From: Yuukianura sp. NJ FZ-2021 | Lineage: Eukaryota | DNA length: 64,000 nt | Direction: 5' to 3' | NCBI GenBank assembly: GCA_046563655.1 | Contig: CM102286.1 | Coordinates: 9,858,001-9,922,000, forward strand | Shown: positions 6,961 to 43,810 of the stretch, piece by piece | How the letters are laid out: the number at the start of each line of letters is the position of its first letter | Numbering within the stretch: position 1 is the first letter of the stretch | Translations under genes and position numbers: made by a program | The notes under the pieces: model-generated | What the model was told of the DNA's origin: nothing | Seen by the model: only the letters and a program-made list of their open reading frames with translations | The model's database searches: none

Positions 6961-7204
6961 TTTTTGACGAAATATATTTTAAAACTTTGGTACGTCAAGC
7001 TTAGGTTAAGGCTTTGGTTAGGCCAGTTAACAAACAGGGTGTCGTTGGTTTAAACCACTTGGTTTTTTTAAAAACCATTGATTTAAATCAAGCTTATTTA
7101 ACTCGAAATTTTGTTTATTTTTGCTTACAGCAAATATCTCCTATTTATCTCCTTACGTCATTTGTATATATTTTCGCTATAACGTCATTTGTATATATTT
7201 TCGC

Positions 7205-9325
7205 CATAGCAATCTTGAGGTAACATCGAGTTCCCATTGTGATATACAGACTTGAAGCCAAGTGAGAGCGTTTACGAACGAAAAGTTAAAGCAGAATCGA
7301 CTGCTGTGAAGGCAAGCGTTAAGAACGTTAAAGTGGTACAATTATAGTCATAGTCTTGAGTCTGCCATTTAAATGCAAAGTTGAGGTATCAAAATATACC
7401 AACTTCCGGAAACGTGCACCAGGAGTTTGTTGGTAATTCATAAGATCAGAATTATGACGCATCGGTATGAGCCAATATTTGAGGGAACACCGAATTCCCA
7501 TTGTGATGTACAGACTTGAAGCCAAGTGAGAGCGTTTGCAGTACGAACGAAAAGTTAAAGCAGAATCGACTGCTGTGAAGGCAAGCGTTAAGAACGTTAA
7601 AGTGGTACAGCTATAGTCATAGTCTTTAGTCTGCCATTTAAATGCAAAGTTGAGGTATCAAAATATACCAACTTCCGGAAAAGTGCACCAGGACTTTGTT
7701 TGTAATTCATAAGATCAGAATTATGAGGCATCGGTATGAGCCTATATTTTAGGTAACATCGAATTCCCATTGTGATGTACAGACTTGAAACCAAGTGAGA
7801 GCGTTTGCAGTACGAACGAAAAGTTAAAGCAGAATCGACTGCTGTGAAGGCAAGCGTTAAGAACGTTAAAGTGGTACAATTATAGTCATAGTCTTGAGTC
7901 TGCCATTTAAATGCAAAGTTGAGGTATCAAAATATACCAACTTCCGGAAACGTGCACCAGGACTTTGTTGGTAATTCATAAGATCAGAATTATGACGCAT
8001 CGGTATGAGCCAATATTTGAGGGAACACCGAATTCCCATTGTGATGTACAGACTTGAAGCCAAGTGAGAGCGTTTGCAGTACGAACGAAAAGTTAAAGCA
8101 GAATCGACTGCTGTGAAGGCAAGCGTTAAGAACGTTAAAGTGGTACAATTATAGTCATAGTCTTGAGTCTGCCATTTAAATGCAAAGTTGAGGTATCAAA
8201 ATATACCAACTTCCGGAAACGTGCACCAGGACTTTGTTGGTAATTCATAAGATCAGAATTATGACGCATCGGTATGAGCCAATATTTGAGGGAACACCGA
8301 ATTCCCATTGTGATGTACAGACTTGAAGCCAAGTGAGAGCGTTTGCAGTACGAACGAAAAGTTAAAGCAGAATCGACTGCTGTGAAGGCAAGCGTTAAGA
8401 ACGTTAAAGTGGTACAGCTATAGTCATAGTCTTTAGTCTGCCATTTAAATGCAAAGTTGAGGTATCAAAATATACCAACTTCCGGAAAAGTGCACCAGGA
8501 CTTTGTTTGTAATTCATAAGATCAGAATTATGACGCATCGGTATGAGCCTATATTTTAGGTAACATCGAATTCCCATTGTGATGTACAGACTTGAAGCCA
8601 AGTGAGAGCGTTTGCAGTACGAACGAAAAGTTAAAGCAGAATCGACTGCTGTGAAGGCAAGCGTTAAGAACGTTAAAGTGGTACAGCTATAGTCATAGTC
8701 TTGAGTCTGCCATTTAAATGCAAAGTTGAGGTATCAAAATATACCAACTTCCGGAAACGTGCACCAGGAGTTTGTTGGTAATTCATAAGATCAGAATTAT
8801 GACGCATCGGTATGAGCCAATATTTGAGGGAACACCGAATTCCCATTGTGATGTACAGACTTGAAGCCAAGTGAGAGCGTTTGCAGTACGAACGAAAAGT
8901 TAAAGCAGAATCGACTGCTGTGAAGGCAAGCGTTAAGAACGTTAAAGTGGTACAGCTATAGTCATAGTCTTGAGTCTGCCATTTAAATGCAAAGTTGAGG
9001 TATCAAAATATACCAACTTCCGGAAAAGTGCACCAGGACTTTGTTTGTAATTCATAAGATCAGAATTATGACGCATCGGTATGAGCCAATATTTGATGGA
9101 ACACCGAATTCCCATAGTGATGTACAGACTTGAAGCCAAGTGAGATCGTTTGCAGTACGAACGAAAAGTTAAAGCAGAATCGACTGCTGTGAAGGCAAGC
9201 GTTAAGAACGTTAAAGTGGTACAGCTGTAGTCATAGTCTTGAGTCTGTCATTTAAATACAAAGTTGAGGTATCAAAATATACCAACTTCCGTAAAAGTGC
9301 ATCAGGAGTATGTTGGTAATTCATT
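7205..9325. repeat. Tandem satellite, 269-bp unit, about 7.8 copies
   Basis: Near-identical ORF-track hits recur every 269 bp (7328, 7597, 7866, 8135, 8404, 8673, 8942). A single diverged partial unit lies at 10570-10745. Confidence 0.97.
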
Positions 9326-9543
9326 CCGGAAAAGGAATACCAACAAATATAAGCAAATAGTGCTGCTGCTGTGCTGTTGCCGTGGCATTCCCGTGCTTTG
9401 CATTGTTAGCATCCTAACTTCCCAATTTTTTGAGCAAGCACAACATGCTCTCTGCTTACCGTGCTCATGCTCTGCGCGAATTTCTTGCAGCAAGTTAGGG
9501 TCGGATCGGTAAGTTACGAGAGGAAAAATCGTTCTCAAGCAAA

Positions 9544-9665
9544 ATGGCTCCATCAAAGTTACAATTGGCCGTACGTTTGCTTGTGTTGCGCCGTATTCGA
9601 AACAAAGTGATTCAAAGGAAGAAAAGAAGGTCAGAGTACATTCGGCCCATTTTTTTGAACCGATT
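9544..9665 (+). pseudogene. N-terminal stub of a Harbinger-type transposase
   Basis: MAPSKLQLAVRLLVLRRIRNKVIQRKKRRSEYIRPIFLNR resembles the basic RRRxWVRPxxxxR leader of Harbinger transposases; it is convergent with the MADF ORF. Confidence 0.5.
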
Positions 9666-10090
9666 GGCAGCATTGGCGTGGTTGAACATCCAGTTGGCGC
9701 AGGCTCAGTGCCATGTTCATTTGAGACAGTATCCACTCCATCCATTACACCAACTTCGTAAAGTTCTTGAGATTCGAAAATTGGGAGGCTTTCTGTATCC
9801 AAATTTGTCAAAGAGTTCTCTTCTGGTTCACCGATCTCCACCAAAAATTTCATGGCCTCTTCATGACGAAAATACGGTCTTCGCCCATTGGCACTACCAG
9901 ATGGGTTAAAAATTGAAACTTTATTACCAGAAATTCCAAGAGACTCTCCCACTTCCTTCCATGCATTTTCTCGGAGAATTTTATTTTTGTATGTATCACT
10001 GGATTTGTCCCAGGGACACAACCTGTCCCTAACCCCATCAATGAGCCGGTGTTCCAGCTCCACCGAACCTGTGCTAAATCCTTCAGCCAT
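9660..10090 (-). pseudogene. MADF/Myb-SANT-like DNA-binding protein fragment (Harbinger accessory ORF)
   Basis: LIDGVRDRLCPWDKSSDTYKNKILRENAWKEVGESLG...SGS...AMKFL matches the MADF pattern; the middle of the domain is missing. Confidence 0.8.
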
Positions 10091-10391
10091 GATGCTTGAT
10101 GTTATCAAAACTAACTTTGATCAGAAAACGAACAATTGTTTCCAAAAAAGCAAGTTTGCTCTGCTCGTGCTTCTTCAATAATTGCTTCCATCCCTACTTT
10201 CAAAAGAGCACGGCAAGAGCAGGAGCACGGTAAGCAAAACGGGAAGTTAGGATGCATTTCCTTGCTCTGTCGTTGCATTGCCAAAGCACGGCACGTGCAA
10301 GGCACAAGTAAGTTAGGATCGGTGATTTTTAACAAAAACAGCGCAGCAAAGCATCGTCAAGGCAGCAGCACGGTAAGTCCGTACCGAGCGT

Positions 10392-10745
10392 TAGGTTAGG
10401 CTAGTTAACAAACAGGGTGTCGCTGGTTTAAACCAGTTGGTTTAAACCACTTGGTTTTTTTTAAACCATTGGTTTAAATCAAGCTTGTTTAACTCGAAAT
10501 TTTGTTTATTTTTGCTTAGAGCAAATATCTCCTATACATCTCTTTACGCCATTTGTATATATTTTGGCTATAGCAATCTTGATGTAACATCGAATTCCCA
10601 TTGTGATGCACACACTTGAAGCCAAGTGAGAGCGTTTGCAGTACGGACGAAAAGTTAGGGCAGTGTCGACTGCTGTGAAGGCAAGCGTTAAAAACGTTAA
10701 AGTGGTACAGTATGGTCACAGTCTTGTGTCTGCCATTTAAATTTA
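10392..10745 (+). repeat. Second copy of the hAT-like left end (duplicate of ~7017-7375)
   Basis: gttaacaaacagggtgtcg...actcgaaattttgtttatttttgctta...cttgaagccaagtgagagcgtttgcagtac is shared with 7017-7375. Confidence 0.9.
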
Positions 10746-10773
10746 TGTCAATTTGTGCATATTTTTTCTGAAG

Positions 10774-12193
10774 GAAATTCATAACAGCCCGAAGTTCTTT
10801 AGCGGAGTTATTGGCGTTAGTCGGTTTGATGTTAAACAAGGAGAATTAGGTTAAAAATGTTAAAATGTTAAAACATGGTTAAAAATTAGTTGAAATGTTA
10901 AACTAACAATTTTTTAGGAGATTGTTACCTTCTTGCTGCCATTGCCAACTTGACCTTGCACTCTGCCCTTTTCCACCGTGTCGTGCCTGAAGACAATGCA
11001 GAGGACTTGAAGGACGGGAAAGAATATGCTGGAATCTGCCACTTCAAGTAATCAAGAATTACTTTAACTAATTAATTAATTACTCTGACTAATTATTTTT
11101 ACTAACTTTTTATTGTAGTTTCTGTGACATGAGTGGTAACTGGACAGAAGTTATCATTGACGACCGCCTTCCGACTACAGTAGACGGACGCCTTATTTTC
11201 ATGACCTCAGCAGACACTGACGAATTCTGGAGCTGCTTACTGGAGAAAGCTTTTGCCAAGTAAAATTCAATATTTTTCAGCCGTGACCTTTGACCTTGCC
11301 AATTTCAGATTCCTCGGGGGGTATGAGAAGTTGGACCAAGGGGGTAACCCTGGAGTGGCCATGCAACACTTCACAGGCGGATCCACTGAAAACATCAACT
11401 TGAAAATGGACATTTCTGCCTTGTTCCAAGCAATGGACTCTGCTCTAAAGGCGGGAAACATGGTTTCAGCTGCTACTGTACAACTTGTACGTTTTTTTAA
11501 ACTTGTGAAATAGAAAAAGCAAAAGTTGTTACTTTTGGTGACCTTTGACAGTTTGGTGACCTTTGACCTCTCTTTAGCCTAGAGACAGGGGACAAGGTCT
11601 GGTCGGTGGACATGCCTATTCGATTACAGGAGTGAAGCGTTTGATTCTTCGGAGCAGAGGGACAGTGATGCTAGTTCGACTACGAAATCGGTCGAGGTAA
11701 ACTTTAACGACCGTCATTGTAGCCGCACAGTGTAGCCACTCTGCCATTTTTAGTGGCTACAATGGGTGGCTACACCGGTGCGGCAACTTAAGTAGCCGCT
11801 TTAACCTAACCTAACCTAACCTAAAGTGGCAACTTAAGTTGCCACACAGTGTAGCTACCCATTGTACCACTAAAAAGGGCGGTGTGGCTACACTGTGCGG
11901 CCACATTGACGGTCGTTAAAGTTTACCTCAACCACGAAATCCGTGGGAAAATGGGACTGAATGGACTGGAGAATGGCGGGATAGGTAAAGTCATTGACCT
12001 TTGACATTTCCACTCTTAATTAATGTTGGATTAATCGATTAACTTAAATCTCAAGACACCCCTTGTGGACAAGCGGACTCGGAAGGACTTTGAACTGATC
12101 TTTGAAGAAGATGAAGAATTTTGGTTCCCGCTGAAAGAATTCAAAAAATATTTTCATCTTCTGCAAATCTGCTACATCAATTCTACCGTCTAA
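10774..12193 (+). pseudogene. Calpain catalytic-domain (CysPc) gene, multi-exon, 5'-truncated and MITE-disrupted
   Basis: Spliced translation [32 protein letters not shown]|..[36 protein letters not shown]|..GLVGGHAYSITG..VRLRN[MITE]PW..EWTGEWRD|..EFW. The Cys, His and Asn triad and GT-AG introns are visible; there is a frameshift in the last exon. Confidence 0.92.
11690..11933. mobile_element. 244-bp foldback MITE with 8-bp TSD
   Basis: TIRs ggtcgaggtaaactttaacgaccgtca / tgacggtcgttaaagtttacctcaacc; TSD ACGAAATC at 11682-11689 and 11934-11941; palindromic body with a central (TAACC)n. Confidence 0.95.
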
Positions 12194-12520
12194 TGTCACA
12201 TGGTCCACTCCCTCGGACATTTTAAACGCTTTCCGAACGTTTTTATTTTAAAATCTGACCATCCATACCCCATGTTATTTACGTTACAATTATTTTAGTT
12301 ATGGATTTACTTAATTTCACAAGAATGACTCAATTTAATTGATTTCGTTACGAAATTTGGTTAATTTTAGCGTCATTTCCTTTGATTTGACCTACTGCCA
12401 CCGCCCTCTAACGACTGCAGAACAAAATTAAATTGGCGGGAAGGGTGACAGTGGTCTGAGTGGTAGCTGTTAGTTCAACTGCAAAAAGAAAAACACACCG
12501 CTAATCTCGATTAATACTTA

Positions 12521-13876
12521 CCCTATTTCACGGCGTATAAGCCGCCGCGGATTATCTGATCTTTTTCTGGCCCAACCGGAAATCAAAAAAAAATTTTTTT
12601 CTAACTTTGTTGATTTCCTTAATCGGTCTACTCCAAAACTAACAAAACGCCCTCAATCCTCCAAACTAATGTTCTCGAAACATTTGCTTAACCCATTTTT
12701 GACACTCTGTACCGTGATTTTTTTTCCAAGATTTCAAGATCCACTCACAAACGTTGGCAAATATTACCTTACTATGGTTCCGGATTTTTGTGAGCGATTA
12801 GTTTTGTCATGAAATGACCGTTCCAACTCAGCGCGACTCCAACTTCACATAATCGAAACATGCAAATCTTCTAATTAGTATCTTTTGTCTTTGTAAAAAT
12901 GTAAACCAAAAACTAGATCGAACTACTTAGGTCATTGACTTGATGTTAAAATTAGACTTCTGTTTACGAATATGATAATTTGGAGTAACTTCTTACTCCT
13001 CGTTTCCGGTTTAGCGTTTGTCCCTGACCGTATAAATACGGCCAGGAGCCAGCCCAGTACAATTCATTCAACTTCTTGCCTCTGCTCCGCTTGGAACAGA
13101 GTGACCTTTACTACTCGACAGTTTGACCTCTGCGAGGTCAAACTGCCTTTTCATTTTTCAGTTAATTTTTGAATAAAAAGTTCATTGACTCCGCAACAAG
13201 CGGAGAACCTAAAACTTGTAGTGTCGTTGTTTCTTTTAGGCCTAAAAGGCCTTTTTTCACTACAGTTTTATAGTCCAACATCCGCTCATTCCAAAAATTT
13301 GGAATGTTAACCTTAATCGATTCACGGAAATATGAAGTGGCTGCAAAAACTTAACCTAATTCGGCGGAAATGGAAATTACTGCCCGTTGCGTAAATTTTT
13401 GAACCGCTTCTTCTGGTTCGGAGGTGCGACGTTCTGTTTTGGCATCATTAGACCAGGAGGCAGTTTTCCTTTTTTGGTTTGGGAAAAACAAACGTTTTCG
13501 TTTCTCCCATACGTTGTTCATCCGATCTTCAAATAATTCGCCGTTAATCCAGCCTTTTGAATCGGCTGGAATTCGAATTCCAGTGGGAAAGTTTTCTTGT
13601 ATACCCTTCGATGTATTTTTTCCTTCCATGCAAATATCTTCCACGGATTATTTTTAAAATTTTCAGTATTTTCAAAAAAAAATGGATAATGAAAAAATTT
13701 TTTTTTCTATAATGGAGACTCTATCGTATAATAATAAAATAGCAATTGCAAGGGTTAACACACAAGCACTGTTCGCCATGTGAGAGATTTGAGCCAATTT
13801 CACAAATCTTATACCCAACACATTATATTGGGGTGCTACATATACGCGAGTGCGACTTATACGCCGTGAAATAGGG
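12521..13876 (-). mobile_element. Decayed pogo/Tigger-like DNA transposon
   Basis: TIRs ccctatttcacggcgtataag / cttatacgccgtgaaataggg flanked by TA. A minus-strand fragment FPTGIRIPADSKGWINGELFEDRMNNVWEKR resembles the pogo DDE_1 domain. Confidence 0.88.
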
Positions 13877-13950
13877 TAATTTTTAAAACGATTCATTGAT
13901 TGTTGTGGTGCGAAAATTGCTGCAACTTGCAGCAATTAATTAAGTTGACC

Positions 13951-16900
13951 TAACTTATTGAGTTTGGCAAAGTGTACCAGAAAAATTATACTTAGATGCG
14001 GGGAAGTGAGGCCTGACAGGAGCTTTCTTTGAGCGTAAATTTAAAACTAAAGCTTAAACATATTTATGTTGTTAAATATGACCAAGGTTGATGTAGAATT
14101 TCAACGCAACATATCCATAGTATGGTTACGTTTGAGACCAGTTAAAATTGAGTGACGTAACGACAAATGGTTCGTAGAGTTTTGACTGAAACAGGATGGA
14201 GATGTTAAAGCCATTGTCAACAGGAAGAAACGGCTGGATTACTGTAACCTATTTTTGAGTATTCAATTCTTACCAAATAAATGGAAATGGTATCAGTTGT
14301 TTGAGAACATACAAAAACCCGTTTTAACGCTCAACGCAAATTAACAAATCAAAAATGCATTGTTCACAGCAACAGTATATAAACGGTCTTAAACGAATGA
14401 AGCTGTTGAAATTCTACAGCGATGTTTTTATTTCGGAAACTTAGGTCAAATTTCAGGCACAACTTTTTAGAAATAAAAACGCTGGTAAAATGTTTTTTTA
14501 AACCTTAACATTCTAACCGCAACTTATTGAGTTTGGTAAAGTGTACCAGAAAAATTATACTTAGATGCGGGAAAATGAGGCCTGACAAGAGTTTTCTTTG
14601 AGTGTAAATTTAAAACTAAAGCTTAAACATATTTATGTTGTTAAATATGACCAAGGTTGATGTAGAATTTCAACGCAACATATCCATAGTATGGTTACGT
14701 TTGAGACTTCAGTTAAAATTGAATGACGTAACGACAAACGGTTCGTAGAGTTTTGACTGAAACAGGCTGTAGATGTTAAAGTCCTTGTCAACAAGGAGAA
14801 GCGGCTGGATTACTGTAACTTATTTTTGAGTATTCAATTCTTACCAAATAAATGGAAATGGTATCAGTTGTTTGAGAACATACAAAAACCCGTTTTAACG
14901 CTCAACGCAAATTAACAAATCAAAAATGCATTGTTCACAGCAACAGTATATAAACGGTCTTAAACGAATGTAGCTGTTGAAATTCTACAGCGATGTTTTT
15001 ATTTCGGAAACTTAGGTCAAATTTCAGGCACAACTTTTTAGAAATAAAAACCCTGGTAAAATGTTTTTTTAAACCTTAACATTCTAACCGCAACTTATTG
15101 AGTTTGGTAAAGTGTACCAGAAAAATTATACTTAGATGCGGGAAAATGAGGCCTGACAAGAGTTTTCTTTGAGTGTAAATTTAAAACTAAAGCTTAAACA
15201 TATTTATGTTGTTAAATATGACCAAGGTTGATGTAGAATTTCAACGCAACATATCCATAGTATGGTTACGTTTGAGACTTCAGTTAAAATTGAATGACGT
15301 AACGACAAACGGTTCGTAGAGTTTTGACTGAAACAGGCTGTAGATGTTAAAGCCGTTGTCAACAAGGAGAAGCGGCTGGATTACTGTAACTTATTTTTGA
15401 GTATTCAATTCTTACCAAATAAATGGAAATGGTATCAGTTGTTTGAGAACATACAAAAACCCGTTTTAACGCTCAACGCAAATTAACAAATCAAAAATGC
15501 ATTGTTCACAGCAACAGTATATAAACGGTCTTAAACGAATGAAGCTGTTGAAATTCTACAGCGATGTTTTTATTTCGGAAACTTAGGTCAAATTTCAGGC
15601 ACAACTTTTTAGAAATAAAAACGCTGGTAAAATGTTTTTTTAAACCCTAACATTCTAACCGCAACTTATTGAGTTTGGTAAAGTGTACCAGAAAAATTAT
15701 ACTTAGATGCGGGAAAATGAGGCCTGACAAGAGTTTTCTTTGAGTGTAAATTTAAAACTAAAGCTTAAACATATTTATGTTGTTAAATATGACCAAGGTT
15801 GATGTAGAATTTCAACGCAACATATCCATAGTATGGTTACGTTTGAGACTTCAGTTAAAATTGAATGACGTAACGACAAACGGTTCGTAGAGTTTTGACT
15901 GAAACAGGATGGAGATGTTAAAGCCATTGTCAACAAGGAAGAAACGGCTGGATTACTGTAACTTATTTTTGAGTATTCAATTCTTACCAAATAAATGGAA
16001 ATGGTATCAGTTGTTTGAGAACATACAAAAACCCGTTTTAACGCTCAACGCAAATTAACAAATCAAAAATGCATTGTTCACAGCAACAGTATATAAACGG
16101 TCTTAAACGAATGAAGCTGTTGAAATTCTACAGCGATGTTTTTATTTCGGAAACTTAGGTCAAATTTCAGGCACAACTTTTTAGAAATAAAAACGCTGGT
16201 AAAATGTTTTTTTAAACCCTAACATTCTAACCGCAACTTATTGAGTTTGGTAAAGTGTACCAGAAAAATTATACTTAGATGCGGGAAAATGAGGCCTGAC
16301 AAGAGTTTTCTTTGAGTGTAAATTTAAAACTAAAGCTTAAACATATTTATGTTGTTAAATATGACCAAGGTTGATGTAGAATTTCAACGCAACATATCCA
16401 TAGTATGGTTACGTTTGAGACCAGTTAAAATTGAGTGACGTAACGACAAATGGTTCGTAGAGTTTTGACTGAAACAGGATGGAGATGTTAAAGCCATTGT
16501 CAACAGGAAGAAACGGCTGGATTACTGTAACCTATTTTTGAGTATTCAATTCTTACCAAATAAATGGAAATGGTATCAGTTGTTTGAGAACATACAAAAA
16601 CCCGTTTTAACGCTCAACGCAAATTAACAAATCAAAAATGCATTGTTCACAGCAACAGTATATAAACGGTCTTAAACGAATGAAGCTGTTGAAATTCTAC
16701 AGCGATGTTTTTATTTCGGAAACTTAGGTCAAATTTCAGGCACAACTTTTTAGAAATAAAAACGCTGGTAAAATGTTTTTTTAAACCCTAACATTCTAAC
16801 CGCAACTTATTGAGTTTGGTAAAGTGTACCAGAAAAATTATACTTAGATGCGGGAAAATGAGGCCTGACAAGAGTTTTCTTTGAGTGTAAATTTAAAACT

Positions 16901-30625: not shown

Positions 30626-30662
30626 TATATATATAGTAACGCTTGAGTTGTGAGAAGTCAGT
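30626..30662 (+). promoter_or_regulatory. Putative Pol II core promoter of the viral IAP (TATA plus arthropod TCAGT initiator)
   Basis: TATATATA at ~30626-30635, TCAGT at 30658-30662 about 30 bp downstream, ATG at 30672. Confidence 0.6.
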
Positions 30663-30671
30663 CAAAGGAAT

Positions 30672-31582: not shown

Positions 31583-31814
31583 TCAAGTGTTGGTATTTTG
31601 TGTTGAGTTAGGTTAGCTAGGTTTTAGCTAGGTTTTAGGCTTTAGTTAGGTTTTGTTGCTGTGAGTTCGATTCCTACATTGAGAAATGAATAAAAAAAAA
31701 ATTCGATTCTTTGAAGTGTTTTCGTTTGATCTACGTTTTGTCATTTACTATTTAATGAAGTGAAATTTTTGAGTAAATAAACATTTGTTGTGAGAGCTAA
31801 GAAGAAGAAGAAGT

Positions 31815-34800
31815 ATGGAAGGGATCCGGAGATTTAAGTGTGACAATTGTGGCGACCGTTTCGATTCGCAAGATTCCTTTTGGGATCACGCTTTTGAACA
31901 TCATGTTTACGACCTTCGCATACCACGTCAAGGTATTTCTCTCAAAAAAAGAAAACGTACGCTTTTGGGTATCTTATAAAGTTGTGTAAATTTTGTTAGA
32001 GTGGGAACCAATAGACGGAGAAGTTGCGGGTCCAAGTCGTCCCAGGGTACCAGTCAATGACGAATCTGGAGCAAGGAATTTGGAAAGACCATTAGACCCA
32101 GTTGTAGATGCAATTTTAGAAGGGCTGCTTGATTATGAAGGTATTAGCAACAGAAAAAAAAAGAGTGATATGGATGGTTAGTCTTGAAAATAAAAGAAAT
32201 GGATTTTTCTGTAGAAGAATTGTCAGAAATTCAACAATCAGCCATGAATGAAGATTTGTCAAACTTTCGCGAGAGGTTCTGCTCACAATGTGCCATCAAG
32301 TTTGAGAATGCAGGAGAGCTCGACTACCATCGGTTTGAGTTTCATCGCGAACTTTACATTGATCAAATGGAAGGTCAACAGTGGGGAGGAACTCAAAGTG
32401 GGCTCGAGATTCGAGAAGTTCGGAGGGCTGGACGTCGGCGAAATGGCGCTGACGGTGGTATTGTACGTGAATTCGAGGTGGATTTGACTCCACAACTCTT
32501 TGCAGATGTGACGGGTGTGATGCGAAGTACAGCTAACGCGCTGACAACTTTGGTGGAAGGACTTCTTCAGGAGTTTGGGGGCATGAAGTTGATTTGTACG
32601 TTGGTTGCAGAGATGACAAGAACATCAAGGGAACGACCAGGTGAAGCCGAGGTGGAACGGTTTCCGTTCAACAGTTTTCTACATGGATGTTTTCATCAGA
32701 GTATGATTCAAACTATTTTGAGGCAAATGTATTCTAAAATGAGATTGTCTATGGAATCATTCGTTCACCACGGTTCGGGCTGGAAATTGAAGCGCTTCTT
32801 GGTACTTCAACTGAGAGTTTTCGAGTATAGGATGGACCGAGGGTCAAGTTGGATTCCGACTCCAAAAGTCATTCGCGACAAACGATGCATCATAAATATT
32901 CGTAACAATGACGAATTCTGCTTCAAGTACGCTATCATGGCAGAACTCAACCCACTTTACAAAAACCCAAATGTAGACTGGTACGCCTTTAACAATCCTA
33001 AAAATTATCAGACGGATCTTGGTAAGATTGACTGGGATTGTATAAATTTTCCGATGACCATCGCTCAACTTGACAAGTTCCATCACTTCAATCCACAGAT
33101 TGCTGTAAATGTGTTTGGTTACGAACCTCGAGACGAACTTGCTCCAAGTGTGAAAGGGAAAAAGAAGATTGATATTTTTCCTCTCTACGTATTTAGAGAA
33201 GCAAGAGCTAAAACTGTTGATTTGTTATTGTTAATCGACGGAAACAAGTCTCATTACACACTTTTGCGGCAAAGTGATTATAATCCTACGGAGGGCCTGT
33301 CTCGATTACTAGGAACAGGTGAACGGTGGTATGAAAAGTTTGTGTGTCGTTTTTGTATGTGTTTTTCAAAAAGCGAAAAGAAATTGCAAAATCACCAAAA
33401 GTTTTGTGCGGCGTTGGACGTACAACGTGTCGTTTTTCCAACCGAAATATACTTTACGTCAAGATTCCTCGTGCAACGTCTTCCTGTGCCCTATGTCATA
33501 TACTTAGATTTTGAAGCACTGTTAGTTCCAACAGACGGGATTGGTACTCGACAGATTGGTGACGTTTATAATGAACATTTAGACTGTGGGTGGTCAATGA
33601 GTATCATTGGGCCGGACGGTTATCTGGCGGACCGTGTAGTGACATTTTGTGGTCCGAATGCTGCACTAAGGTTGGTTGACGAACTCGTGTCTGTTGCCGG
33701 AAAGATATATCCAATTTTGAAAGAAGATGTTGGCCTCGACACACGATGGACAGAATCTGACTATGCTCACCTTTTGCTGGCTTCAACTCACTGTATTCAT
33801 TGTGGACTGGAGTTTGTGGAAGGGGTTGACACTAAGTGCATTGACCACTGCCATATTACATCAACCATTCGTGGAGTGAGTTGCGGTCCTTGTAACCTGA
33901 ACGCCCAAGTTTGTTCATTCATTCCAGTTGTTTGTCATGGTTTTCGACATTATGATTCGAAATTTATTGTACAAGCGTTGCGTGCTAGTACAATTAAATC
34001 TGTGGAAGTTTTGGCGAGCAGCAGCACCGAGAAGTTTACTGCGCTTCGGTTGACAACCCATGGAGATCATGTTCTGCGAATGATTGATTCGTATCAGTTT
34101 ATTAGTGCGAGCTTAGCAGAGCAAGTCAAAATGCTTGCCAAAGAAGGAAAAGATAAATTTGGTGTGACTTGTCACCATTTTCAACAGTACGGAAGTAAAA
34201 TTGAATTACTTTTAAGAAAAGGGGTTTACCCTTACAGTTACTTTGACTCCATGGAGCGATTTGATGAAACGTGTTTGCCACCTGCCGAAAAATGGAAAAG
34301 CGATTTGACTGGAAAATCCATCAGTCCTGAAGATTTGGAACATGCGCATACGGTTTGGCGGGAATTTGGCTGTCAAACATTGAGAGATTATCACAACTTG
34401 TACGTTTCTCTTGATGTTTGCCTCCTGGCGGATTGTTTCCAGAATATGAAAAGAAGTATGCTCGAGAGTTTCCGCCTGGATCCGGCGCACTATCTCACTC
34501 TTCCAGGAATAGCATACGACGCAGCAATGTTGGCAGGAAAAGTGGAGTACGAGTATCTGGATGAGATTGACAAGTACATGTATTTTGAACGCGGGATTCG
34601 GGGTGGAATTTGTTCTGTCGGACTACGTTATGCAAAAGCAAATAACCCTTACTTGTGGGATTTGTATGACCCGGCGCTTCTATTGAGTTACATTTGTTAC
34701 TGGGATGCAAACGCCTTGTACGCAACTTGTTTGAGGAACTACGTTCCGTGGAAAGATTTTGTGTAGGAAATGTCACTGGAAAACAGAACAAGAAATTTGG

Positions 34801-36085
34801 ATAGTGTCGTGAAGATGATCATGGATTTGGAGGATTGTGGTCCGGAGGGATTAGTTTTGGAGGTAGATTTGGATTATCCGCAAGAATTGCATGATTCTCA
34901 CAATGACTACCCATTAGCAGTACAGCGAAGTGAAATAACATACGATTGGCTCTCCGACTACACAAAAGAAGTTTTGAAGAACGTGGGAGCTACACCTGGA
35001 TCTTGCAAAAAAACAAAACTTTTCGGAACATTGTGTAACAAAAGAAACTACATTGTCCATTATCGACTTTTAAAGTTGTTTTTGGAGCTTGGACTGAAAC
35101 TTGTGAAGGTTCACAGAGCCATACGGTTTACACAAGCTCCATTATTTCGTGTATACACGGACATTTGTATAACACGTCGACGCGAAGCGACGAATCCGGT
35201 GGATAAGAACTTTTACAAGGCCATGGGAAACATTTTGGCGGGAAAAGTTTACCAAAATGTCCGGAAATATAGGCGGATCAACATTGCATTATCAAGAGAG
35301 AAGATGAGAGAATACGCCCGAAAGCCAACCGTTGAGGACGTCAAAATCATTCATGATGAGTGTGTTTTGTTTGTGATGAAAAAGTTGGCTGCTAGGCTAG
35401 ACAAACCTATTTTTGTTGGACAGTGCATTTTGGATGATTCCAAATGCAGAATGTGCAGTTTTTACTATAAGTGGTTAAAGCCGCGATATGGAGACAACAT
35501 GAGGCTGATGTATACGGATACGGATAGCTTCTTACTTCACATAAAAACGGAAGATGTTTATGCAGATATAGCTGAAAGTGTGAGGAGGAATGAAGGCGTC
35601 TTTGACACATCAAAGTACGACAGAGGAAATGAAAAATTTGGATATTTGTGGAGTGACCAATTTGAAGGGGTTGGTGGTTGCTTCAAGGACGAATGTGCCA
35701 ACGAAGTGATTTCGGAAGCAATAGCATTGAAGCCAAAAATGTATGCAATCAAGATGTTGAAGGACGATGGGACGCAAACTCAACTGAAGAAGGCAAAAGA
35801 AACAGTTCGCTCTGTTGTCGAGAATGAATTGGATTTTGAAGATTACAAAAAAGTTTTAGAAAACGGACGGTTCAAGTCTTGTAGTATGAATACAATTCGA
35901 AGTTTAAATCACCGTTTATATACAACTACAATGTACAAAAAAGTTTGTCAGCATATGAAGATAAGAGTTTTTATTTGTCTCCAATTGATTCATTAAGATT
36001 TGGTCATTATAGAATTGAATTAGAAAAGAATTTGCATCAAATTGTAGACGATTTGGAAGAAGATGAATCAAGCCAATTAGATTAA
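31815..36085 (+). pseudogene. polB: Protein-primed family B DNA polymerase with N-terminal C2H2 fingers and an inserted endonuclease VII/HNH-like domain
   Basis: Exo motifs YLDFEA and HGFRHYDS; Pol motifs YWDANALY, KAMGNILAGK, YTDTDS; insert CIHC..DHCH...RGVSCGPCN. In-frame TAG at 34764-34766, frameshift at the A-run near 35940, and predicted introns 31933-31999 and 32141-32214. Confidence 0.93.
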
Positions 36086-36128
36086 ATGTCCTTCCAGTTA
36101 GTAGTTGTTTGGGGTTTGATTTGTCAAG

Positions 36129-36788
36129 ATGGAAATTCAATGTTCATTGCAGCATCCGTTTGTCATGGTGTTGGCCGGTCCTACACAAAGTGGAAAAAGT
36201 ACATTGATTAAAAAAGTTTTGGAACGCATAGACGAAGTTGTTGAGCCAAAAATCAAGCGTATAATCTACTGTTATGCCGAGAATGAGCCGGATTTTGCAA
36301 AAAGTTTAAAAGGAGTTCACAGTGGAAAAGAAATTGAAATTGATTTTCGCCAAGGTATGAATCAAATTGATGTTGACATTGGAAACAAGACGCCAACTCT
36401 TGTTGTGTTGGATGACTTTATGGAAGACCTTGGATCATCCTTGGATATTTGTAGATTGGTAACTCGGGGTTCCCATCACCGTTCACTGTCTCTTATGATT
36501 ACGATTCAAAATTTTTTCTTTAAAGGATGTAGGAATTTGACTTTAAGTGCAAAATATGTTGCATTATTTCGAAATCCAAGGGATAAGACTATAATAAAAT
36601 ATTTGGGACGACAAATGAATGGCGGAAAAGCAAATTCGACGTTAGAAGAAGCATTTGAGGATGCTACAAAAAATAAGCCAAATAGCTATTTATTTTTAGA
36701 TATGTCTCAAAGTCAAAATGATGACTTTCGAATAAGATCAAATGTATTTGCAGATCCAGAATCTTGTCTAGTATATTTGAAAAAGTAA
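36129..36788 (+). CDS. Polinton-type genome-packaging ATPase (A32/FtsK-like)
   Basis: Walker A GPTQSGKS, Walker B LVVLDD, GSHHRSLS..ITIQN, FRNPRD and YLFLD motifs. Confidence 0.92.
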   Translation: MEIQCSLQHPFVMVLAGPTQSGKSTLIKKVLERIDEVVEPKIKRIIYCYAENEPDFAKSLKGVHSGKEIEIDFRQGMNQIDVDIGNKTPTLVVLDDFMEDLGSSLDICRLVTRGSHHRSLSLMITIQNFFFKGCRNLTLSAKYVALFRNPRDKTIIKYLGRQMNGGKANSTLEEAFEDATKNKPNSYLFLDMSQSQNDDFRIRSNVFADPESCLVYLKK

Positions 36789-36794
36789 CATACC

Positions 36795-37145
36795 TTAGTT
36801 TCGTTTCAATTTTGAAAGTCCTTCTGTGAGACAATCAAATAAATGGATTGGAATCACAGCACTAGATGCAGCATCGTAAACATTTTTAATATGTAAATGT
36901 GTGAGGGGTCCTTGGTCGTTTCCTTGTTCGTTGCCAATGTATAGCTGCCAACCATCTTCCAAATTAACTCGTGGTGGCGGATGTGGTTTAGGAAATTCTT
37001 GACGAACTTCAACTACCATTGCCAAAGATGTGACTTTGCGAGGAAGTTTGGGAATACGAACACGTTTGCGTTGCTTCTTTTCTTGGAGTTCTCCTGTGAT
37101 AAGATTTGGATTTAGGTTAAGAAAATCTTGAATTGGAGAATCCAT
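36795..37145 (-). CDS. Hypothetical viral protein with a basic NLS-like stretch
   Basis: Open frame MDSPIQDFLN..KKQRKRVRIPKLPRK.. tightly packed between the ATPase and the integrase; no family recognised. Confidence 0.5.
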   Translation of the reverse strand: MDSPIQDFLNLNPNLITGELQEKKQRKRVRIPKLPRKVTSLAMVVEVRQEFPKPHPPPRVNLEDGWQLYIGNEQGNDQGPLTHLHIKNVYDAASSAVIPIHLFDCLTEGLSKLKRN

Positions 37146-37303
37146 TTCGGATGACTTTTGTTCTGTTTTGTTGAGGTTACAGTTACAAGAAAATGTTTCA
37201 CAAACAGTAATTGTAGTAGTAGAATTTTTCTTGAAACAAAAATTTGCAAATGAACGCCAGAGAGAGCAAATTTGACATGAGCTCATGTCACGGAAAGTTA
37301 AAC

Positions 37304-38292
37304 TCAAGACTGAGGAATGCGTTGAAGTTCTTCGTTGTAAAATATTCCAAATATGTGTTCACCTTTGCCATCTTTTAACTTGTAGGTTACGGGTTGCGTA
37401 TTACAAACTTCAACAATTTGAAAAATTTCTTTTGTCCAGCTTTGGGCATATCCCTTTTCAAAAATCATTTTAGTTTTACTAATTATTACGGAGTCTCCGA
37501 CGTTGAAGTTAGGACGTTTGTGTTTTGCTTGGCTTTGTTTTGGTGAGTATCCGTACAAGTTTAGAAATACTTGAGTTTTTGTGTCTTCATTGACTTGATT
37601 TGGCGTAACATTTGATGGAACGATGATATGTGTTGTTGTATTATTATTATTATTATTATTATTAGTATTAGTATATTTACAATACTTTGCAAAACATCTA
37701 AAAATTTATTAGTCTGATTGTGTGTCATATATCTTGCCAACCTTCTCATTAATGTTTGGTTAAATCTTTCAACTATTACTGCCTTCAGTTCGGATCTAGT
37801 ACTAAAGTATGAAACAGAATGTTGTTTTAAAAGTTGTTTAACATTTTGATTTAAAAACTCTTTCCCTTCATCAAATTGAATTGACTTGGGAGGGCCTCTT
37901 TTCTTAAAAATTTTTTGCAACGCGTTTGCTACTTGACTTCCAGTTTTCTTTTTTAAAGGAATGACGTCAGCGACTTTAGAAAAACCGTCAATACAAGTTA
38001 ACAAGAAGTTATGATTCGTATTCGACTCGGAATACTTTGAAATGTCGATTAGGTCAATTATATACTGATATCTAATAGACGGTATAAAAACTTTTCGTCT
38101 TTTGTATCGTTTTCTAGCAGGTTTGTGAAGAGTATAAGCTGGAAGTTGTTCTAATGCTTTTAGTACACTTCTTTTGCTGAATCCATTTTTCTTTTGAGCT
38201 TGAAAAGTTCCTTCTAATCCAGAAAATGCAAAAGTTGAACGAGGATTAACGTATTCTTTACGAATTTTCTCTGTCAACTGTTTCTGTGCCAT
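37304..38292 (-). pseudogene. Polinton retroviral-like (rve/DDE) integrase, frameshifted
   Basis: YTLHKPARKRY, IIDLID, QFDEGKEF, VERFNQTL, YNNTYHRSIK, FNVGDSVIIS..FEKGY..WTKEIF..FYNEELQ. An (ATT)n insertion at ~37640-37672 breaks the frame. Confidence 0.93.
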
Positions 38293-38436
38293 TGTACAGA
38301 TTAAGTCTGACTACAAGAATTGGAGATGCAACAGTATATATCGTGGAGGTATATAAACGAGGTTAATCATTTGAAGTCTCAACATGAAACTGTTCACACC
38401 ACGTACAAAACAAGGCCGTGTGGTTGTTGGATCATC

Positions 38437-38772
38437 ATGTCTACAACTGTGAAAGAAAATTCTGATTTTTTGAGATATCTAATCAAGTGTTCACCCCAAC
38501 AAAGAAAAGCGTTAATTAAATATGCGAGTAGTGGTGAAGTCAAAAGTATTTGTGAATGTGTTTTGAATATATATAAAAAAAATGTTGGACTAAAAAAGTC
38601 GTCAATTGAAAAATTACGTCCATTCAAAAGAGCAATACTTTCAATTGTCAAGAGAAGAGGTTCATCGTTGGTCAAAAAGAAAAAACTTTTGTCTCAAAAG
38701 GGTGGTGCAATAATTCCTTTAATTTTAGGATCCATGATTCCAAGCGTTTTATCAGCAATTTTACAAAAATGA
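38437..38772 (+). CDS. Polinton/adintovirus small basic virion core-like protein
   Basis: Basic protein with ICECVLNI..L..KKKKLLSQKGG followed by a hydrophobic tail AIIPLILGSMIP; the GG/hydrophobic junction is an adenain-type cleavage context. Confidence 0.7.
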   Translation: MSTTVKENSDFLRYLIKCSPQQRKALIKYASSGEVKSICECVLNIYKKNVGLKKSSIEKLRPFKRAILSIVKRRGSSLVKKKKLLSQKGGAIIPLILGSMIPSVLSAILQK

Positions 38773-39285
38773 AACGAATGCGTCTAATTTCCGAATTAGA
38801 CTACAAGAACCTATACGAAGAACCAAAAAAGAAAAAAGTTCCCTTGAGTCATTAAAGACTGCTTATGGAAATGAAGATTTGGAACACAAGAAGCAAACAA
38901 TTTTATCTGTGGACGATGTACCAGATGACATCAAAGCTCTGTTGTATTATGATTTTTCTCGTCGACTATTACAAAAACGAAAACTTTTGTCAAATCGTCC
39001 AGTTTTAGTAAAATCTGTTTCTCCAGCAAATCCAAATTTGACATCAAACTATCCAAACAGCAATAGTAACAACCAATCCAACTTGTTACAAAAAATTGAG
39101 TATGTTACTGAACCATACATTTTAAAACAAGTACCAGGAAAGGATGCTAAAAAGTTTGTAAACTTTATGAAATTGAGTAATATTAGTTGGAATTCGGATT
39201 TGGAAATTTTAATTGATAATCAGCGTATTCCTTCTTCAAATATCATCAATGTCCTCTCCCAGTTTATTTCATTTAAAAAGCAACT
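38769..39285 (+). pseudogene. Conserved Polinton hypothetical protein, frameshifted and truncated by the satellite
   Basis: ATGA overlap with the upstream stop; MKRMRLIS.. / IL..PDDIKALLY.. / ISWN..EILID...IPSSNII pattern; the frame runs into satellite DNA at 39286. Confidence 0.6.
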
Positions 39286-42200
39286 TAACCGCAACTTATT
39301 GAGTTTGGTAAAGTGTACCAGAAAAATTATACTTAGATGCGGGCAAATGAGGCCTGACAAGAGTTTTCTTTGGGTGTAAATTTAAAACTAAAGCTTAAAC
39401 ATATTTATGTTGTTAAATATGACCAAGGTTGATGTAGAATTTCAACGCAACATATCCATAGTATGGTTAGGTTTAAGACTTCAGTTAAAATTGAGTGACG
39501 TAACGACAAATGGTTCGTAGAGTTTTGACTGAAACAGGCTGGAGATGTTGAAGCCATTGTCAACAAGAAGAAACGGCTGGATTACTGTAACTTATTTTTG
39601 AGTATTCAATTCTTACCAAATAAATGGAAATGGTATCAGTTGTTTGAGAACATACAAAAACCCGTTTTAACGCTCAACGCAAATTAACAAATCAAAAATG
39701 CATTGTTCACAGCAACAGCATATAAACGGTCTTAAACGAATGTAGCTGTTGAAATTCTACAGCGATGTTTTTATTTCGGAAACTTAGGTCAAATTTCAGC
39801 CACAACTTTTTAGAAATAAAAACGCTGGTAAAATGTTTTTTTAAACCCTAACATTCTAACCGCAACTTATTGAGTTTTATTAAAATGTACCAGAAAAAGT
39901 ATACTTAGATGCGGGCAAATGAGGCCTGACAAGAACTTTCTTTGAGTGTAAATTTAACACTAAAGCTTAAACATATTTATGTTGTTAAATATGACCAAGG
40001 TTGTTGTAGAATTTCAACGCAACATATCCATAGTATGGTTAGGTTTAAGACTTCAGTTAAAATTGAGTGATGTAACGACAAATGGTTCGTAGAGTTTTGA
40101 CTGAAACAGATTGTAGATGTTAAAGCCGTTGTCGACAAGGAGAAGCGGCTGGATTACTGTAACTTATTTTTGAGTATTCAGTTCTTACCAAATAAATGGA
40201 AATGGTATCAGTTGTTTGAGAACATACAAAAACCCGTTTTAACGCTCAACGCAAATTAACAAATCAAAAATGCATTGTTCACAGCAACAGTATATAAACG
40301 GTCTTAAACGAATGAAGCTGTTGAAATTCTACAGCGATGTTTTTATTTCGGAAACTTAGGTCAAATTTCAGGCACAACTTTTTAGAAATAAAAACGCTGG
40401 TAAAATGTTTTTTAAACCCTAACATTCTAACCGCAACTTATTGAGTTTGATAAAGTGTACCAGAAAAATTATACTTAGCTGAGGGCAAATGAGGCCTGAC
40501 AAGAGTTTTCTTTGAGTGTAAATTTAAAACTAAAGCTTAAACATATTTATGTTGTTAAATATGACCAAGGTTGATGTAGAATTTCAACGCAACATATCCA
40601 TAGTATGGTTACGTTTGAGACCAGTTAAAATTGAGTGACGTAACGACAAATGGTTCGTAGAGTTTTGACTGAAACAGGATGGAGATGTTAAAGCCATTGT
40701 CAACAGGAAGAAACGGCCGGATTACTGTAACCTATTTTTGAGTATTCAATTCTTACCAAATAAATGGAAATGGTATCAGTTGTTTGAGAACATACAAAAA
40801 CCCGTTTTAACGCTCAACGCAAATTAACAAATCAAAAATGCATTGTTCACAGCAACTGTATATAAACGGTCTTAAACGAATGTAGCTGTTGAAATTCTAC
40901 AGCGATGTTTTTATTTCGGAAACTTAGGTCAAATTTCAGGCACAACTTTTTAGAAATAAAAACGCTGGTAAAATGTTTTTTAAACCCTAACATTCTAACC
41001 GCAACTTATTGAGTTTGGTAAAGTGTACCAGAAAAAGTATACTTAGATGCGGGCAAATGAGGCCTGACAAGAGTTTTCTTTGAGTGTAAATTTAAAACTA
41101 AAGCTTAAACATATTTATGTTGTTAAATATGACCAAGGTTGATGTAGAATTTCAACGCAACATATCCATAGTATGGTTAGGTTTAAGACTTCAGTTAAAA
41201 TTGAGTGATGTAACGACAAATGGTTCGTAGAGTTTTGACTGAAACAGACTGTAGATGTTAAAGCCGTTGTCGACAAGGAGAAGCGGCTGGATTACTGTAA
41301 CTTATTTTTGAGTATTCAATTCTTACCAAATAAATGGAAATGGTATCAGTTGTTTGAGAACATACAAAAACCCGTTTTAACGCTCAACGCAAATTAACAA
41401 ATCAAAAATGCATTGTTCACAGCAACAGTATATAAACGGTCTTAAACGAATGAAGCTGTTGAAATTCTACAGCGATGTTTTTATTTCGGAAACTTAGGTC
41501 AAATTTCAGGCACAACTTTTTAGAAATAAAAACGCTGGTAAAATGTTTTTTTAAACCCTAACATTCTAACCGCAACTTATTGAGTTTGATAAAGTGTACC
41601 AGAAAAATTATACTTAGCTGAGGGCAAATGATGCCTGACAAGAGTTTTCTTTGAGTGTAAATTTAAAACTAAAGCTTAAACATATTTATGTTGTTAAATA
41701 TGACCAAGGTTGATGTAGAATTTCAACGCAACATATCCATAGTATGGTTAGGTTTAAGACTTCAGTTAAAATTGAGTGATGTAACGACAAATGGTTCGTA
41801 GAGTTTTGACTGAAACAGACTGTAGATGTTAAAGCCGTTGTCGACAAGGAGAAGCGGCTGGATTACTGTAACTTATTTTTGAGTATTCAATTCTTACCAA
41901 ATAAATGGAAATGGTATCAGTTGTTTGAGAACATACAAAAACCCGTTTTAACGCTCAACGCAAATTAACAAATCAAAAATGCATTGTTCACAGCAACAGT
42001 ATATAAACGGTCTTAAACGAATGAAGCTGTTGAAATTCTACAGCGATGTTTTTATTTCGGAAACTTAGGTCAAATTTCAGGCACAACTTTTTAGAAATAA
42101 AAACGCTGGTAAAATGTTTTTTTAAACCCTAACATTCTAACCGCAACTTATTGAGATTGATAAAGTGTACCAGAAAAATTATACTTAGCTGAGGGCAAAT

Positions 42201-43088
42201 GAGGCCTGACAAGAGTTTTCTTTGAGTGTAAATTTAAAACTAAAGCTTAAACATATTTATGTTGTTAAATATGACCAAGGTTGATGTAGAATTTCAACGC
42301 AACATATCCATAGTATGGTTACGTTTGAGACCAGTTAAAATTGAGTGACGTAACGACAAATGGTTCGTAGAGTTTTGACTGAAACAGGATGGAGATGTTA
42401 AAGCCATTGTCAACAGGAAGAAACGGCCGGATTACTGTAACCTATTTTTGAGTATTCAATTCTTACCAAATAAATGGAAATGGTATCAGTTGTTTGAGAA
42501 CATACAAAAACCCGTTTTAACGCTCAACGCAAATTAACAAATCAAAAATGCATTGTTCACAGCAACTGTATATAAACGGTCTTAAACGAATGTAGCTGTT
42601 GAAATTCTACAGCGATGTTTTTATTTCGGAAACTTAGGTCAAATTTCAGGCACAACTTTTTAGAAATAAAAACGCTGGTAAAATGTTTTTTTAAACCCTA
42701 ACATTCTAACCGCAACTTATTGAGTTTGGTAAAGTGTACCAGAAAAAGTATACTTAGATGCGGGCAAATGAGGCCTGACAAGAGTTTTCTTTGAGTGTAA
42801 ATTTAAAACTAAAGCTTAAACATATTTATGTTGTTAAATATGACCAAGGTTGATGTAGAATTTCAACGCAACATATCCATAGTATGGTTAGGTTTAAGAC
42901 TTCAGTTAAAATTGAGTGATGTAACGACAAATGGTTCGTAGAGTTTTGACTGAAACAGACTGTAGATGTTAAAGCCGTTGTCGACAAGGAGAAGCGGCTG
43001 GATTACTGTAACTTATTTTTGAGTATTCAATTCTTACCAAATAAATGGAAATGGTATCAGTTGTTTGAGAAAGTACAAAAACCCATTT
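39286..43088. repeat. Tandem ~570-bp satellite, about 6.7 units (right array)
   Basis: Same unit as 13951-30198, resuming in register at taaccgcaacttattgag, with several private variants. Confidence 0.97.
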
Positions 43089-43220
43089 TAGTTTTGCTTG
43101 AAAAACTAAAACCTCTTGGTGTTGTATTTTCAGAATTAGACCGCCTTAAACGCATTCAAAGTTCAATGGGCCATTTCGTTTTAAGGGTAAAATCGTCCGT
43201 AGTTTTCAGTTAATTGAACA

Positions 43221-43590
43221 ATGAGTAGCGGTATGACACGTGACATCGTTTGGTTAAGCTTCCAGGAAGTAGTTTCTTGTGACCGAGAGTTCAGTAGTGC
43301 AAACTGTAACGCCTATGGACAAGAAATGCAAGGTCAAGTGGCAATTTTTAACTGCAAGTGTTCCGAAAAATGTAATGGATTGCACTAGGAAGACAATGTC
43401 GCAGGCACTGCTTCCTATTCATTATTTGGCATCCTGTCTAGCTTGGTAAAAAACTGTCGGAGTATGTAATTGAACTCGCCGTTACTTATGCAGCAGTTGA
43501 AAACGAAAGGTGTTCAGGAATCTTAGCAGCTTTACGCAGTACAGAGCACAAACGGGACCACTCCGAAAAGTTTTGTTTTCTAACACTGTT
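43221..43590 (+). pseudogene. Heavily deleted hAT transposase remnant (BED-finger N-terminus plus C-terminal scraps)
   Basis: MSSGMTRDIVWLSFQEV..ANCNAYGQEMQGQVA..KC resembles a decayed BED finger. LPIHYLA and VE.R/EKxxxL-like scraps follow, ~200 bp from the right TIR. Confidence 0.6.
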
Positions 43591-43810
43591 TTAAACGACA
43601 TATCTGCTTCGGATTGGTAGGACTTATATTGTTTTAGTTTAGTTTAAGTTTCAACTTGATTCGAAAGGGTACCTTTTTGGCACCCATTTTTAATTTAATT
43701 CTACACAATTCTTCTTCTTCGCGCATGAATTCTCAAGCCTTGGTTTAAACAAAAAAAAAACGTTTTTTTTTGGGGTTTTTTGGAAAAAAACGAAACAACC
43801 CGACACCCTG

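Follow-up and report, generated by a model that had tools for sequence, protein, structure and literature searches.

It was found that one copy of a locally triplicated segment in the genome of the springtail Yuukianura sp. NJ FZ-2021 is split by a block of 36,776 bp, which consists mostly of satellite arrays and a Polinton/Maverick-like fragment and is bracketed by an exact ten-base inverted repeat. The analyzed DNA, here called the window, is a stretch of 64,000 nucleotides (GenBank assembly GCA_046563655.1, contig CM102286.1, positions 9,858,001 to 9,922,000 of the forward strand). The window is animal DNA and contains long interspersed nuclear elements (LINEs), a MADF frame, calpain exons with introns, and the Polinton-like element. 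The block has two left ends and one right end of an inverted-repeat element, which I call E. I consider it moderately probable that the block grew by accretion at its present site, as a repeat island seeded by E, a common element. The left and right ends would once have been united in a single copy of E, and the growth steps may have followed the order proposed below. The features are listed in Table 1.

An interrupted copy of a triplicated segment

The interrupted segment, R, is present as three local copies, namely R1 (split by the block), R2, and R3 (uninterrupted). In a self-BLAST of the window, 6166-6420 and 6414-6958 on the left side of the block pair with 50163-50411 and 50824-51323 (85% and 80% identity, respectively), and 43815-44665 on the right side pairs with 51409-52280 of R3 (81% identity). 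A pairwise alignment places the left breakpoint on R3 between 51323 and 51324 and the right one between 51404 and 51405. The two halves of R1 are neighbors on R3, and 81 bp of R has been lost between them. A preliminary description of this DNA had taken 6112-6960 and 43811-44665 for adjacent parts of one segment, about 85 bp apart, and this view was borne out. The same description had called the segment intact elsewhere. A contiguous copy does exist, but it is one of three local copies, and R2 had been overlooked. The name "host segment" is a fair one for R.

The end of R3 overlaps a reading frame for a multi-pass membrane protein and lies about 10 bp downstream of its ATG. Thus, R looks like an upstream region that has been triplicated locally in a small gene cluster. 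The frames at 44741-46040 (minus strand) and 51998-53462 (plus strand) resemble multi-pass membrane (chemoreceptor-like) proteins by eye, and no Pfam match was found for them. The first-exon copy belonging to R1 ends after MLKFENM. The possibility that R is the 3′ tail of the upstream LINE was ruled out, as this LINE terminates in (AAATTC)n near 5693 and the reverse transcriptase fragment preceding R2 is only 31% identical in protein.

The two junctions of the block

The ten bases CAGGGTGTCG are found at 7035-7044 on the plus strand, and their exact reverse complement at 43801-43810. In the window, the exact ten-base repeat is present only at 7035, 10413, and 43801-43810. I estimate that a given 10-mer would lie as close as about 100 bp to a fixed junction in about one of 10,000 cases. 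The exact inverted repeat reported earlier at both edges of the block is therefore confirmed. The right junction is flush; the R homology resumes immediately past the repeat. On the left, 72 bp (6963-7034) separates the end of the R homology (6962) from the repeat, so that this junction is not flush. When this filler was aligned globally with the missing part of R, the score was −9, at the mean of shuffled sequences (−8.6), and 1139 of 2000 shuffles were as good. Neighboring R sequence, used as a positive control, scored 56 against the same shuffle mean of −8.6, a value reached by none of 2000 shuffles. Thus, the 72 bp is not R sequence.

It was revealed that a part of the filler is copied from the other side of the block. 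The 14-mer at 6966-6979 is identical to 43941-43954, as noted previously, and the match extends to 18 of 19 positions over 6966-6984. Among 1000 control segments of the window, none reached a 14-nucleotide match, and among 1000 shuffled fillers two did, so the similarity is beyond chance. The template lies in R1-right, 131-149 bp beyond the right junction, and the templated patch carries the R1-right variants at three positions that differ from R3. Polymerase-theta-type end joining is marked by patchy copying of sequence that lies a little past the opposite side of the break. With its deletion, the left junction has the appearance of an end-joining scar. Today, 37 kb separates the filler from its template, and thus the host flanks were probably close to each other when the left junction formed. 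This arrangement suggests that the founding insert was small, or that all events took place at a single break, and that the bulk of the block was added later. No part of the locus is more instructive than this junction.

The 8-mers flanking the block, TTAACAAA on the left and CATACAAA on the right, agree at five of eight positions, exactly as the preliminary description had counted. No verifiable 8-bp target duplication was found around the block, as TTAACAAA lies in non-R sequence and recurs identically before the second left end of E. Since the left 8-mer is not host sequence, the two 8-mers do not constitute a target duplication.

Element E and its doubtful assignment to hAT

The third exact copy of CAGGGTGTCG, at 10413 on the plus strand, opens a second copy of the left end, designated E2, while the copy at the block edge is designated E1. 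The stretch 10391-10742 matches 7013-7374 with an identity of 80% across 381 columns (86% across the first 183), and this homology sets in 22 bp ahead of the repeat. The same TTAACAAA precedes both copies, and both left ends are preceded by GGTTAGGC[C/T]AGTTAACAAA. The 19-mer GGTTAGGCYAGTTAACAAA is found, with at most three mismatches, only at the two left-end sites within the window, where 0.03 occurrences are expected by chance. Next to E2, the common sequence may be longer and reach the end of the nested element M. The 22 bp may be either a donor or duplicated flank, or a part of the true terminus of E. The two left ends are in direct orientation and stand against a single right end (E-right). 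No partner for any E end was found in the window with up to one mismatch or by sensitive BLAST.

The stretch 9325-14521 was compared at a likeness of at least 80% with public contigs from three runs of one sample (X1-X3), which is possibly or even probably the source of the assembly itself, and with those of a second organism (X4). The summed contig depth at 10369-10542 in E2 is the second highest on this stretch. Many contigs begin their match at 10480 and end it at 10518-10520, delimiting a core of 40 bp in E-left (10480-10520). This core seems to be common to another, more abundant repeat family. Scans of metagenomes for the left end of E with patterns of 23 and 21 nucleotides gave no matches, which is a weak result because springtail DNA is unlikely to be present there. 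E may be described as an abundant, non-autonomous inverted-repeat family whose superfamily is putative and unproven.

Does E belong to the hAT superfamily, as was proposed in the preliminary description? The ends of hAT elements follow the pattern YARNG. The short inverted ends of the block, CAGGGTGTCG/CGACACCCTG, are exact over 10 bp, and their terminal CAGGG fits this pattern. On inspection by eye, the frames at 43218-43620 resemble BED and hAT-C sequences. However, no zf-BED or hAT dimerization match was obtained for these frames in Pfam at E-values up to 10. No relatives of them were found among longer proteins. A protein-atlas search with the E-right peptide returned, as its best rows (0.82), ribbon-helix-helix families at the chance level. 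All of these are weak tests when the peptides are short and decayed. Thus, the "BED/hAT remnant" described at the right end (43218-43594) was not recovered as a domain or by relatives. The hAT assignment of E is unsupported; only the short repeat fits, and neither a verifiable 8-bp target duplication nor a transposase remnant was found. On the other hand, a miniature inverted-repeat transposable element (MITE) of 252 bp in the block has a clean 8-bp duplication, which indicates that such transposases have been active in this genome.

Satellite arrays

Satellites make up 60.3% of the block and the Polinton fragment 24.7%, together 85%, while three short spacers amount to 135 bp in total (0.4%). 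The units of the 269-bp satellite are 95-98% alike mutually and 89-92.5% alike to the single partial unit in E2, where 164 bp of the unit is present once, at 10579-10742, as expected of a transposon-derived satellite. Judging from this shared unit, the 269-bp satellite is evidently derived from E-internal sequence. The units of the array are closer to each other than to the E2 unit, and thus the array is younger than the split between E1 and E2.

The two arrays of the 570-bp satellite are 96-97% identical to each other, while the left array is internally 98-99% identical. The phase of the 570-bp repeat continues exactly across the Polinton fragment (from offset 561 to 562) without a duplication. 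This pattern of homogeneity and the continuity of the phase fit continued local amplification. The 570-bp unit has no single-copy counterpart in the window, and an origin in E is not shown. It resembles a transposase N-terminus by eye, but a coding origin was rejected, as no Pfam match was found at E-values up to 1. In the left array, an exact (100%) duplication of 302 bp at 27876-28480 shifts the phase; this may have arisen very recently or may reflect an error of assembly. The 570-bp unit is in tandem in the second organism too, where a contig goes back by 569 positions.

The calpain fragment and the nested elements

The calpain piece in the block is a fragment and not a gene. Positions 55-297 of the Peptidase_C2 profile are covered in four pieces (E-values 3.7e-10, 1.4e-14, 1.1e-5, and 1e-4), except that positions 197-260 are missing from the Pfam matches and were read by eye only. 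The exon-intron structure is retained, and the reading frames contain the Cys, His, and Asn motifs. The fragment begins in an intron, with a polypyrimidine tract and an AG near 10776, 34 bp past the end of the E2 homology. The calpain domain III was not found at the fragment by Pfam. No homologue of a calpain exon was found among longer proteins, in a search whose word index is weak for a query of 56 amino acids. The exon bearing RLRNPWG is interrupted by the foldback MITE. In all four runs, the MITE is missing from a contig with about 97-98% identity to the calpain fragment, in which 11682 is followed directly by 11935; thus, the MITE was inserted after the calpain copies had separated. Other calpain-like contigs are about 89% identical.

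The MITE shows the highest summed contig depth on the examined stretch in both organisms (5,800-42,800 in X1-X3 and 1,554 in X4). The CCTAA at its center corresponds to the telomere-type TTAGG. Both organisms have multiple contigs of high depth for each of five families, namely the arms of M, the first 130 bp or so of E2, the MITE, the element T, and the 570-bp unit. Since these families occur as separate high-depth contigs in two organisms, they are genome-wide repeats and not a cargo specific to the block. The inverted arms of M are long and imperfect (about 115-170 nucleotides) and far more abundant in the contigs than its interior, as if short arm-only derivatives were common. The frame inside M (9302-10120, minus strand) matches MADF_DNA_bdg in Pfam with an E-value of 2.6e-6. 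Contigs joining 12539 to 13841 represent a short deleted form of the T family located elsewhere. A joint of 10391 to 13969 in one X3 contig was taken as noise, as its short side has only 28 letters.

In the Polinton/Maverick-like fragment, the Pfam match to rve is clear (E-value 2.6e-11), that to the protein-primed PolB is below the cut-off of Pfam (9e-4), and that to a packaging-type ATPase is weak. Capsid and protease matches were not found by Pfam. Polintons are marked by long inverted ends and a target duplication of 5-6 bp. Neither a target duplication nor inverted ends were found for this fragment, whose best end-to-end inverted similarity scores 21. Thus, the fragment was placed by something other than its own integrase. 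A frame with a BIR (inhibitor-of-apoptosis) domain at 30837-31526 (E-value 2.4e-8) lies at its left edge beside an 88-bp tandem repeat (30393-30562). Outside the block, a frame with an RFX DNA-binding domain (55724-57190, minus strand; E-value 3e-6, just above the cut-off of Pfam) lies directly upstream of a reverse transcriptase frame (53821-55431) on the same strand. The stretch 53821-57190 may be a LINE whose first frame bears an RFX-like domain.

Table 1. Features of the split segment, the block, and the other copies of the segment (positions in the window; shares refer to the 36,776-bp block)
Feature	Positions	Strand	Length	Share of block	Basis or content
R1-left, left part of triplicated R	6112-6962	+			self-BLAST to 50163-51323 and 47164-47810; homology stops at 6962
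Junction filler, non-R	6963-7012	.			copy of 43941-43959 at 6966-6984; 11-mer 7001-7011 equals 43864-43874
Flank preceding the repeat	7013-7034	+	22 bp		common with 10391-10412, includes TTAACAAA; sequence comparison
E1, first left-end copy	7035-7214	+	180 bp	0.5%	opens with CAGGGTGTCG; contains GGTTTAAACC palindrome
269-bp satellite, 7.9 copies	7215-9324	+	2,110 bp	5.7%	Tandem Repeats Finder
M	9360-10377	-	1,018 bp	2.8%	arms 9360-9473 and 10209-10377 around MADF frame
E2, second left-end copy	10391-10742	+	330 bp from 10413	0.9%	includes the 22-bp flank
Calpain gene fragment	10743-12510	+	1,768 bp	4.8%	without 5′ part; Pfam Peptidase_C2
Foldback MITE	11683-11934	.	252 bp		in calpain exon; perfect 8-bp duplication ACGAAATC; (CCTAA)4 at center
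T	12511-13886	.	1,376 bp	3.7%	35-nucleotide inverted ends; TTAA on both sides
570-bp satellite, left array, about 28.5 copies	13952-30198	+	16,247 bp	44.2%	units 98-99% alike
Polinton/Maverick-like fragment	30199-39285	+	9,087 bp	24.7%	PolB, ATPase, rve (minus strand), BIR frame
570-bp satellite, right array, about 6.7 copies	39286-43090	+	3,805 bp	10.3%
E-right, non-satellite	43091-43810	+	720 bp	2.0%	ends in CGACACCCTG; no detectable protein domain
R1-right	43811-44665	+			homology to R3 51405-52280 begins at first base past inverted repeat
R2, partial third copy of R	47098-47810				self-BLAST
R3, uninterrupted copy of R	50077-52280	+			stops about 10 bp past the ATG of membrane-protein reading frame 51998-52510

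Origin of the block

In the reading that I favor, a copy of E in R1 would have been the founder, its right terminus being joined flush as by a transposase. The left side would have been closed by end joining, with the loss of 81 bp of R and the insertion of the 72-bp filler, partly templated from R1-right, the last 22 bp of which would travel with the left end of E. The left end and the preceding 22 bp may then have been duplicated, giving E1 and E2, which are now about 15-20% diverged. Next, a 269-bp internal piece of E1 may have been amplified to 7.9 copies, after which the 570-bp satellite would have expanded to about 35 copies. Finally, M, T, the foldback MITE, and the Polinton/Maverick fragment would have been inserted, amounting to at least four nested insertions. 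The calpain piece is probably an inert genomic fragment that was captured or that arrived as a donor-site flank.

Growth in place was one of two alternatives in the preliminary description and is favored by the evidence. The scaffold that was said to have gained two satellites, a calpain gene, other transposable elements, and a virus does hold two satellites, nested elements, and a Polinton piece, but the calpain sequence is only a fragment. The idea of one element bounded by both terminal inverted repeats holds at the right edge, where a terminus is flush with the host, but not on the left, where there are two left ends and an end-joining scar.

Several points weigh against accretion in place around E. 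A single large element would likewise display the exact 10-bp bracketing repeat with CAGGG. Past their first 10 bp, the ends are alike only at the chance level (177 of 2000 and 559 of 2000 shuffles were as good), and their common origin in one element is unproven. If the 22 bp belongs to the true terminus of E, the left junction needs a different reading. Neither 10391 nor 10413 is among the contig loose ends listed. Contig depth is not the same as copy number, and the lengths of the arrays and the long-range join rest on one sample (X1-X3).

How else may such a block have arisen? The main rival, although unlikely, is that it began as a composite insertion through aberrant transposition, either alternative or one-ended. 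A pair of E termini close to each other at a donor locus would have acted together and carried flanking donor DNA into R1, with one broken E end in a calpain intron, one end joined by a transposase and the other by end joining, and the satellites and nested elements added later. The boundary between the E2 left end and calpain lies inside a calpain intron, 34 bp before the splice acceptor, just where an element inserted in the gene would sit. The 22 bp of non-R flank on both left ends and the combination of a deleted left junction, filled from a template, with a flush right one also speak for such an event. In maize, composite insertions of up to 19,341 bp consisting of termini and flanking DNA provide a precedent, in the part of the source drawn on here (PMC4270019). 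However, the maize cases in that part retain 8-bp target duplications (PMC4270019), and none was found at the block. The donor locus was not seen, and the twin calpain contig stops short of the E boundary. In addition, the left ends are direct and not reversed, and the superfamily of E is unproven. A related proposal, which I find doubtful, is that hAT-like ends, one of them in a calpain intron, might have been mobilized together in an Ac/fAc-like or Pack-type manner, half by transposase and half by end joining, bringing a piece of the calpain gene to a new site, and might later have served as a seed bed for satellites. If true, the block would document, as a naturally occurring fossil, that alternative transposition has moved fragments of host genes in an arthropod, and this would be of interest to specialists. 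It is quite improbable that the ends are unrelated, E-right being the solo end of an old insertion in R1 and the left ends having arrived in foreign DNA via break repair or segmental duplication, so that no element ever spanned 7035-43810. The two left ends against one right end, the likeness of the ends over 10 bp only, the lack of a target duplication, and the same non-R flank at both left ends are consistent with this, and since E is a high-copy element, several copies in 37 kb are unsurprising. In contrast, the right end and the outermost left end stand at the edges of one and the same interruption of R1 in the correct inverted orientation, an arrangement that one would not expect of independent fragments, and neither has another partner in the window at the search depth given above.

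The preliminary description had offered, as its other alternative, a giant composite transposon. An element of about 33-37 kb that was mobile as a unit with its cargo, driven in trans by a hAT-type transposase, is very improbable. It would explain the exact 10-bp terminal inverted repeat opening with CAGGG and the interruption of a segment that is contiguous in a paralogue. However, no target duplication was found, the left 8-mer being non-host sequence that is repeated at E2, and no transposase remnant was found. Moreover, 85% of the length consists of satellites and the Polinton fragment, with signs of local stepwise growth. No second copy was found either, the metagenome scans for the left end being weak evidence on this point. 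Equally remote is an assembly artefact, in which the satellite arrays were misjoined and the block is chimeric or of the wrong length. It is difficult to assemble 16.2 kb of 570-bp units that are 98-99% identical, the 302-bp duplication with its phase jump is exact, and no contig among those listed spans the examined stretch. Nevertheless, the halves of R1 flank the block in their correct order and orientation, an arrangement that would not result from a false join between loci. There are also contigs identical to the window at 9848-10112 and 12228-12616, though these are probably from the same sample. Whatever its history, the block carries a warning for annotation: short inverted repeats around 37 kb do not make a giant transposon.

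Comparison with known systems

The seeding of satellites by transposon ends is already known, as is the capture of gene fragments by DNA transposons in plants; such capture is reported for Caenorhabditis elegans too. The block resembles Ds-type non-autonomous hAT elements in its terminal CAGGG, which fits the end pattern of the superfamily. It differs from them in its additional left end, and neither a BED or hAT dimerization domain nor a verifiable 8-bp duplication was detected.

In the alternative transposition of maize Ac/fAc, a hAT system, composite insertions carry termini that flank duplicated donor DNA (PMC4270019). In common with the block, as far as the part of the source used here describes them, these insertions have termini outside and donor-flanking DNA inside, may reach tens of kilobases, and include an internal or lateral end-joining junction. 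In contrast, their 8-bp duplications are kept and their donor loci are known (PMC4270019, same part). The block has neither a target duplication nor a donor nor proof of hAT ancestry, and its length results mostly from later satellite growth.

Gene fragments are acquired through transduplication both in the Pack-TYPE transposons of plants and in Turmoil-1 of C. elegans, according to the portions of the two sources considered (PMC8903248, PMC2572040). An end of a non-autonomous DNA transposon adjoining a gene fragment that retains its introns is a shared trait. These elements, as described in those portions, are small and multi-copy and have both ends and target duplications, whereas the calpain piece was seen once, beside one left end only.

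Tetris of Drosophila virilis is a foldback transposon whose internal tandem repeats (TIR-220) have been amplified to satellite-like arrays of kilobase size (PMC4079207, in the part consulted). Its repeats lie in long inverted foldback ends, and many rearranged copies have been studied there (PMC4079207). In contrast, the block is one locus with a 10-bp inverted repeat, and its 570-bp satellite is without a shown element origin. The likeness is that Tetris, in the same part of the source, is also a non-autonomous inverted-repeat element; in the block, a partial 269-bp unit occurs once in E2, against 7.9 copies beside E1. If accretion in place is the true history, the block is one more case of transposons seeding tandem arrays and of satellites collecting mobile elements.

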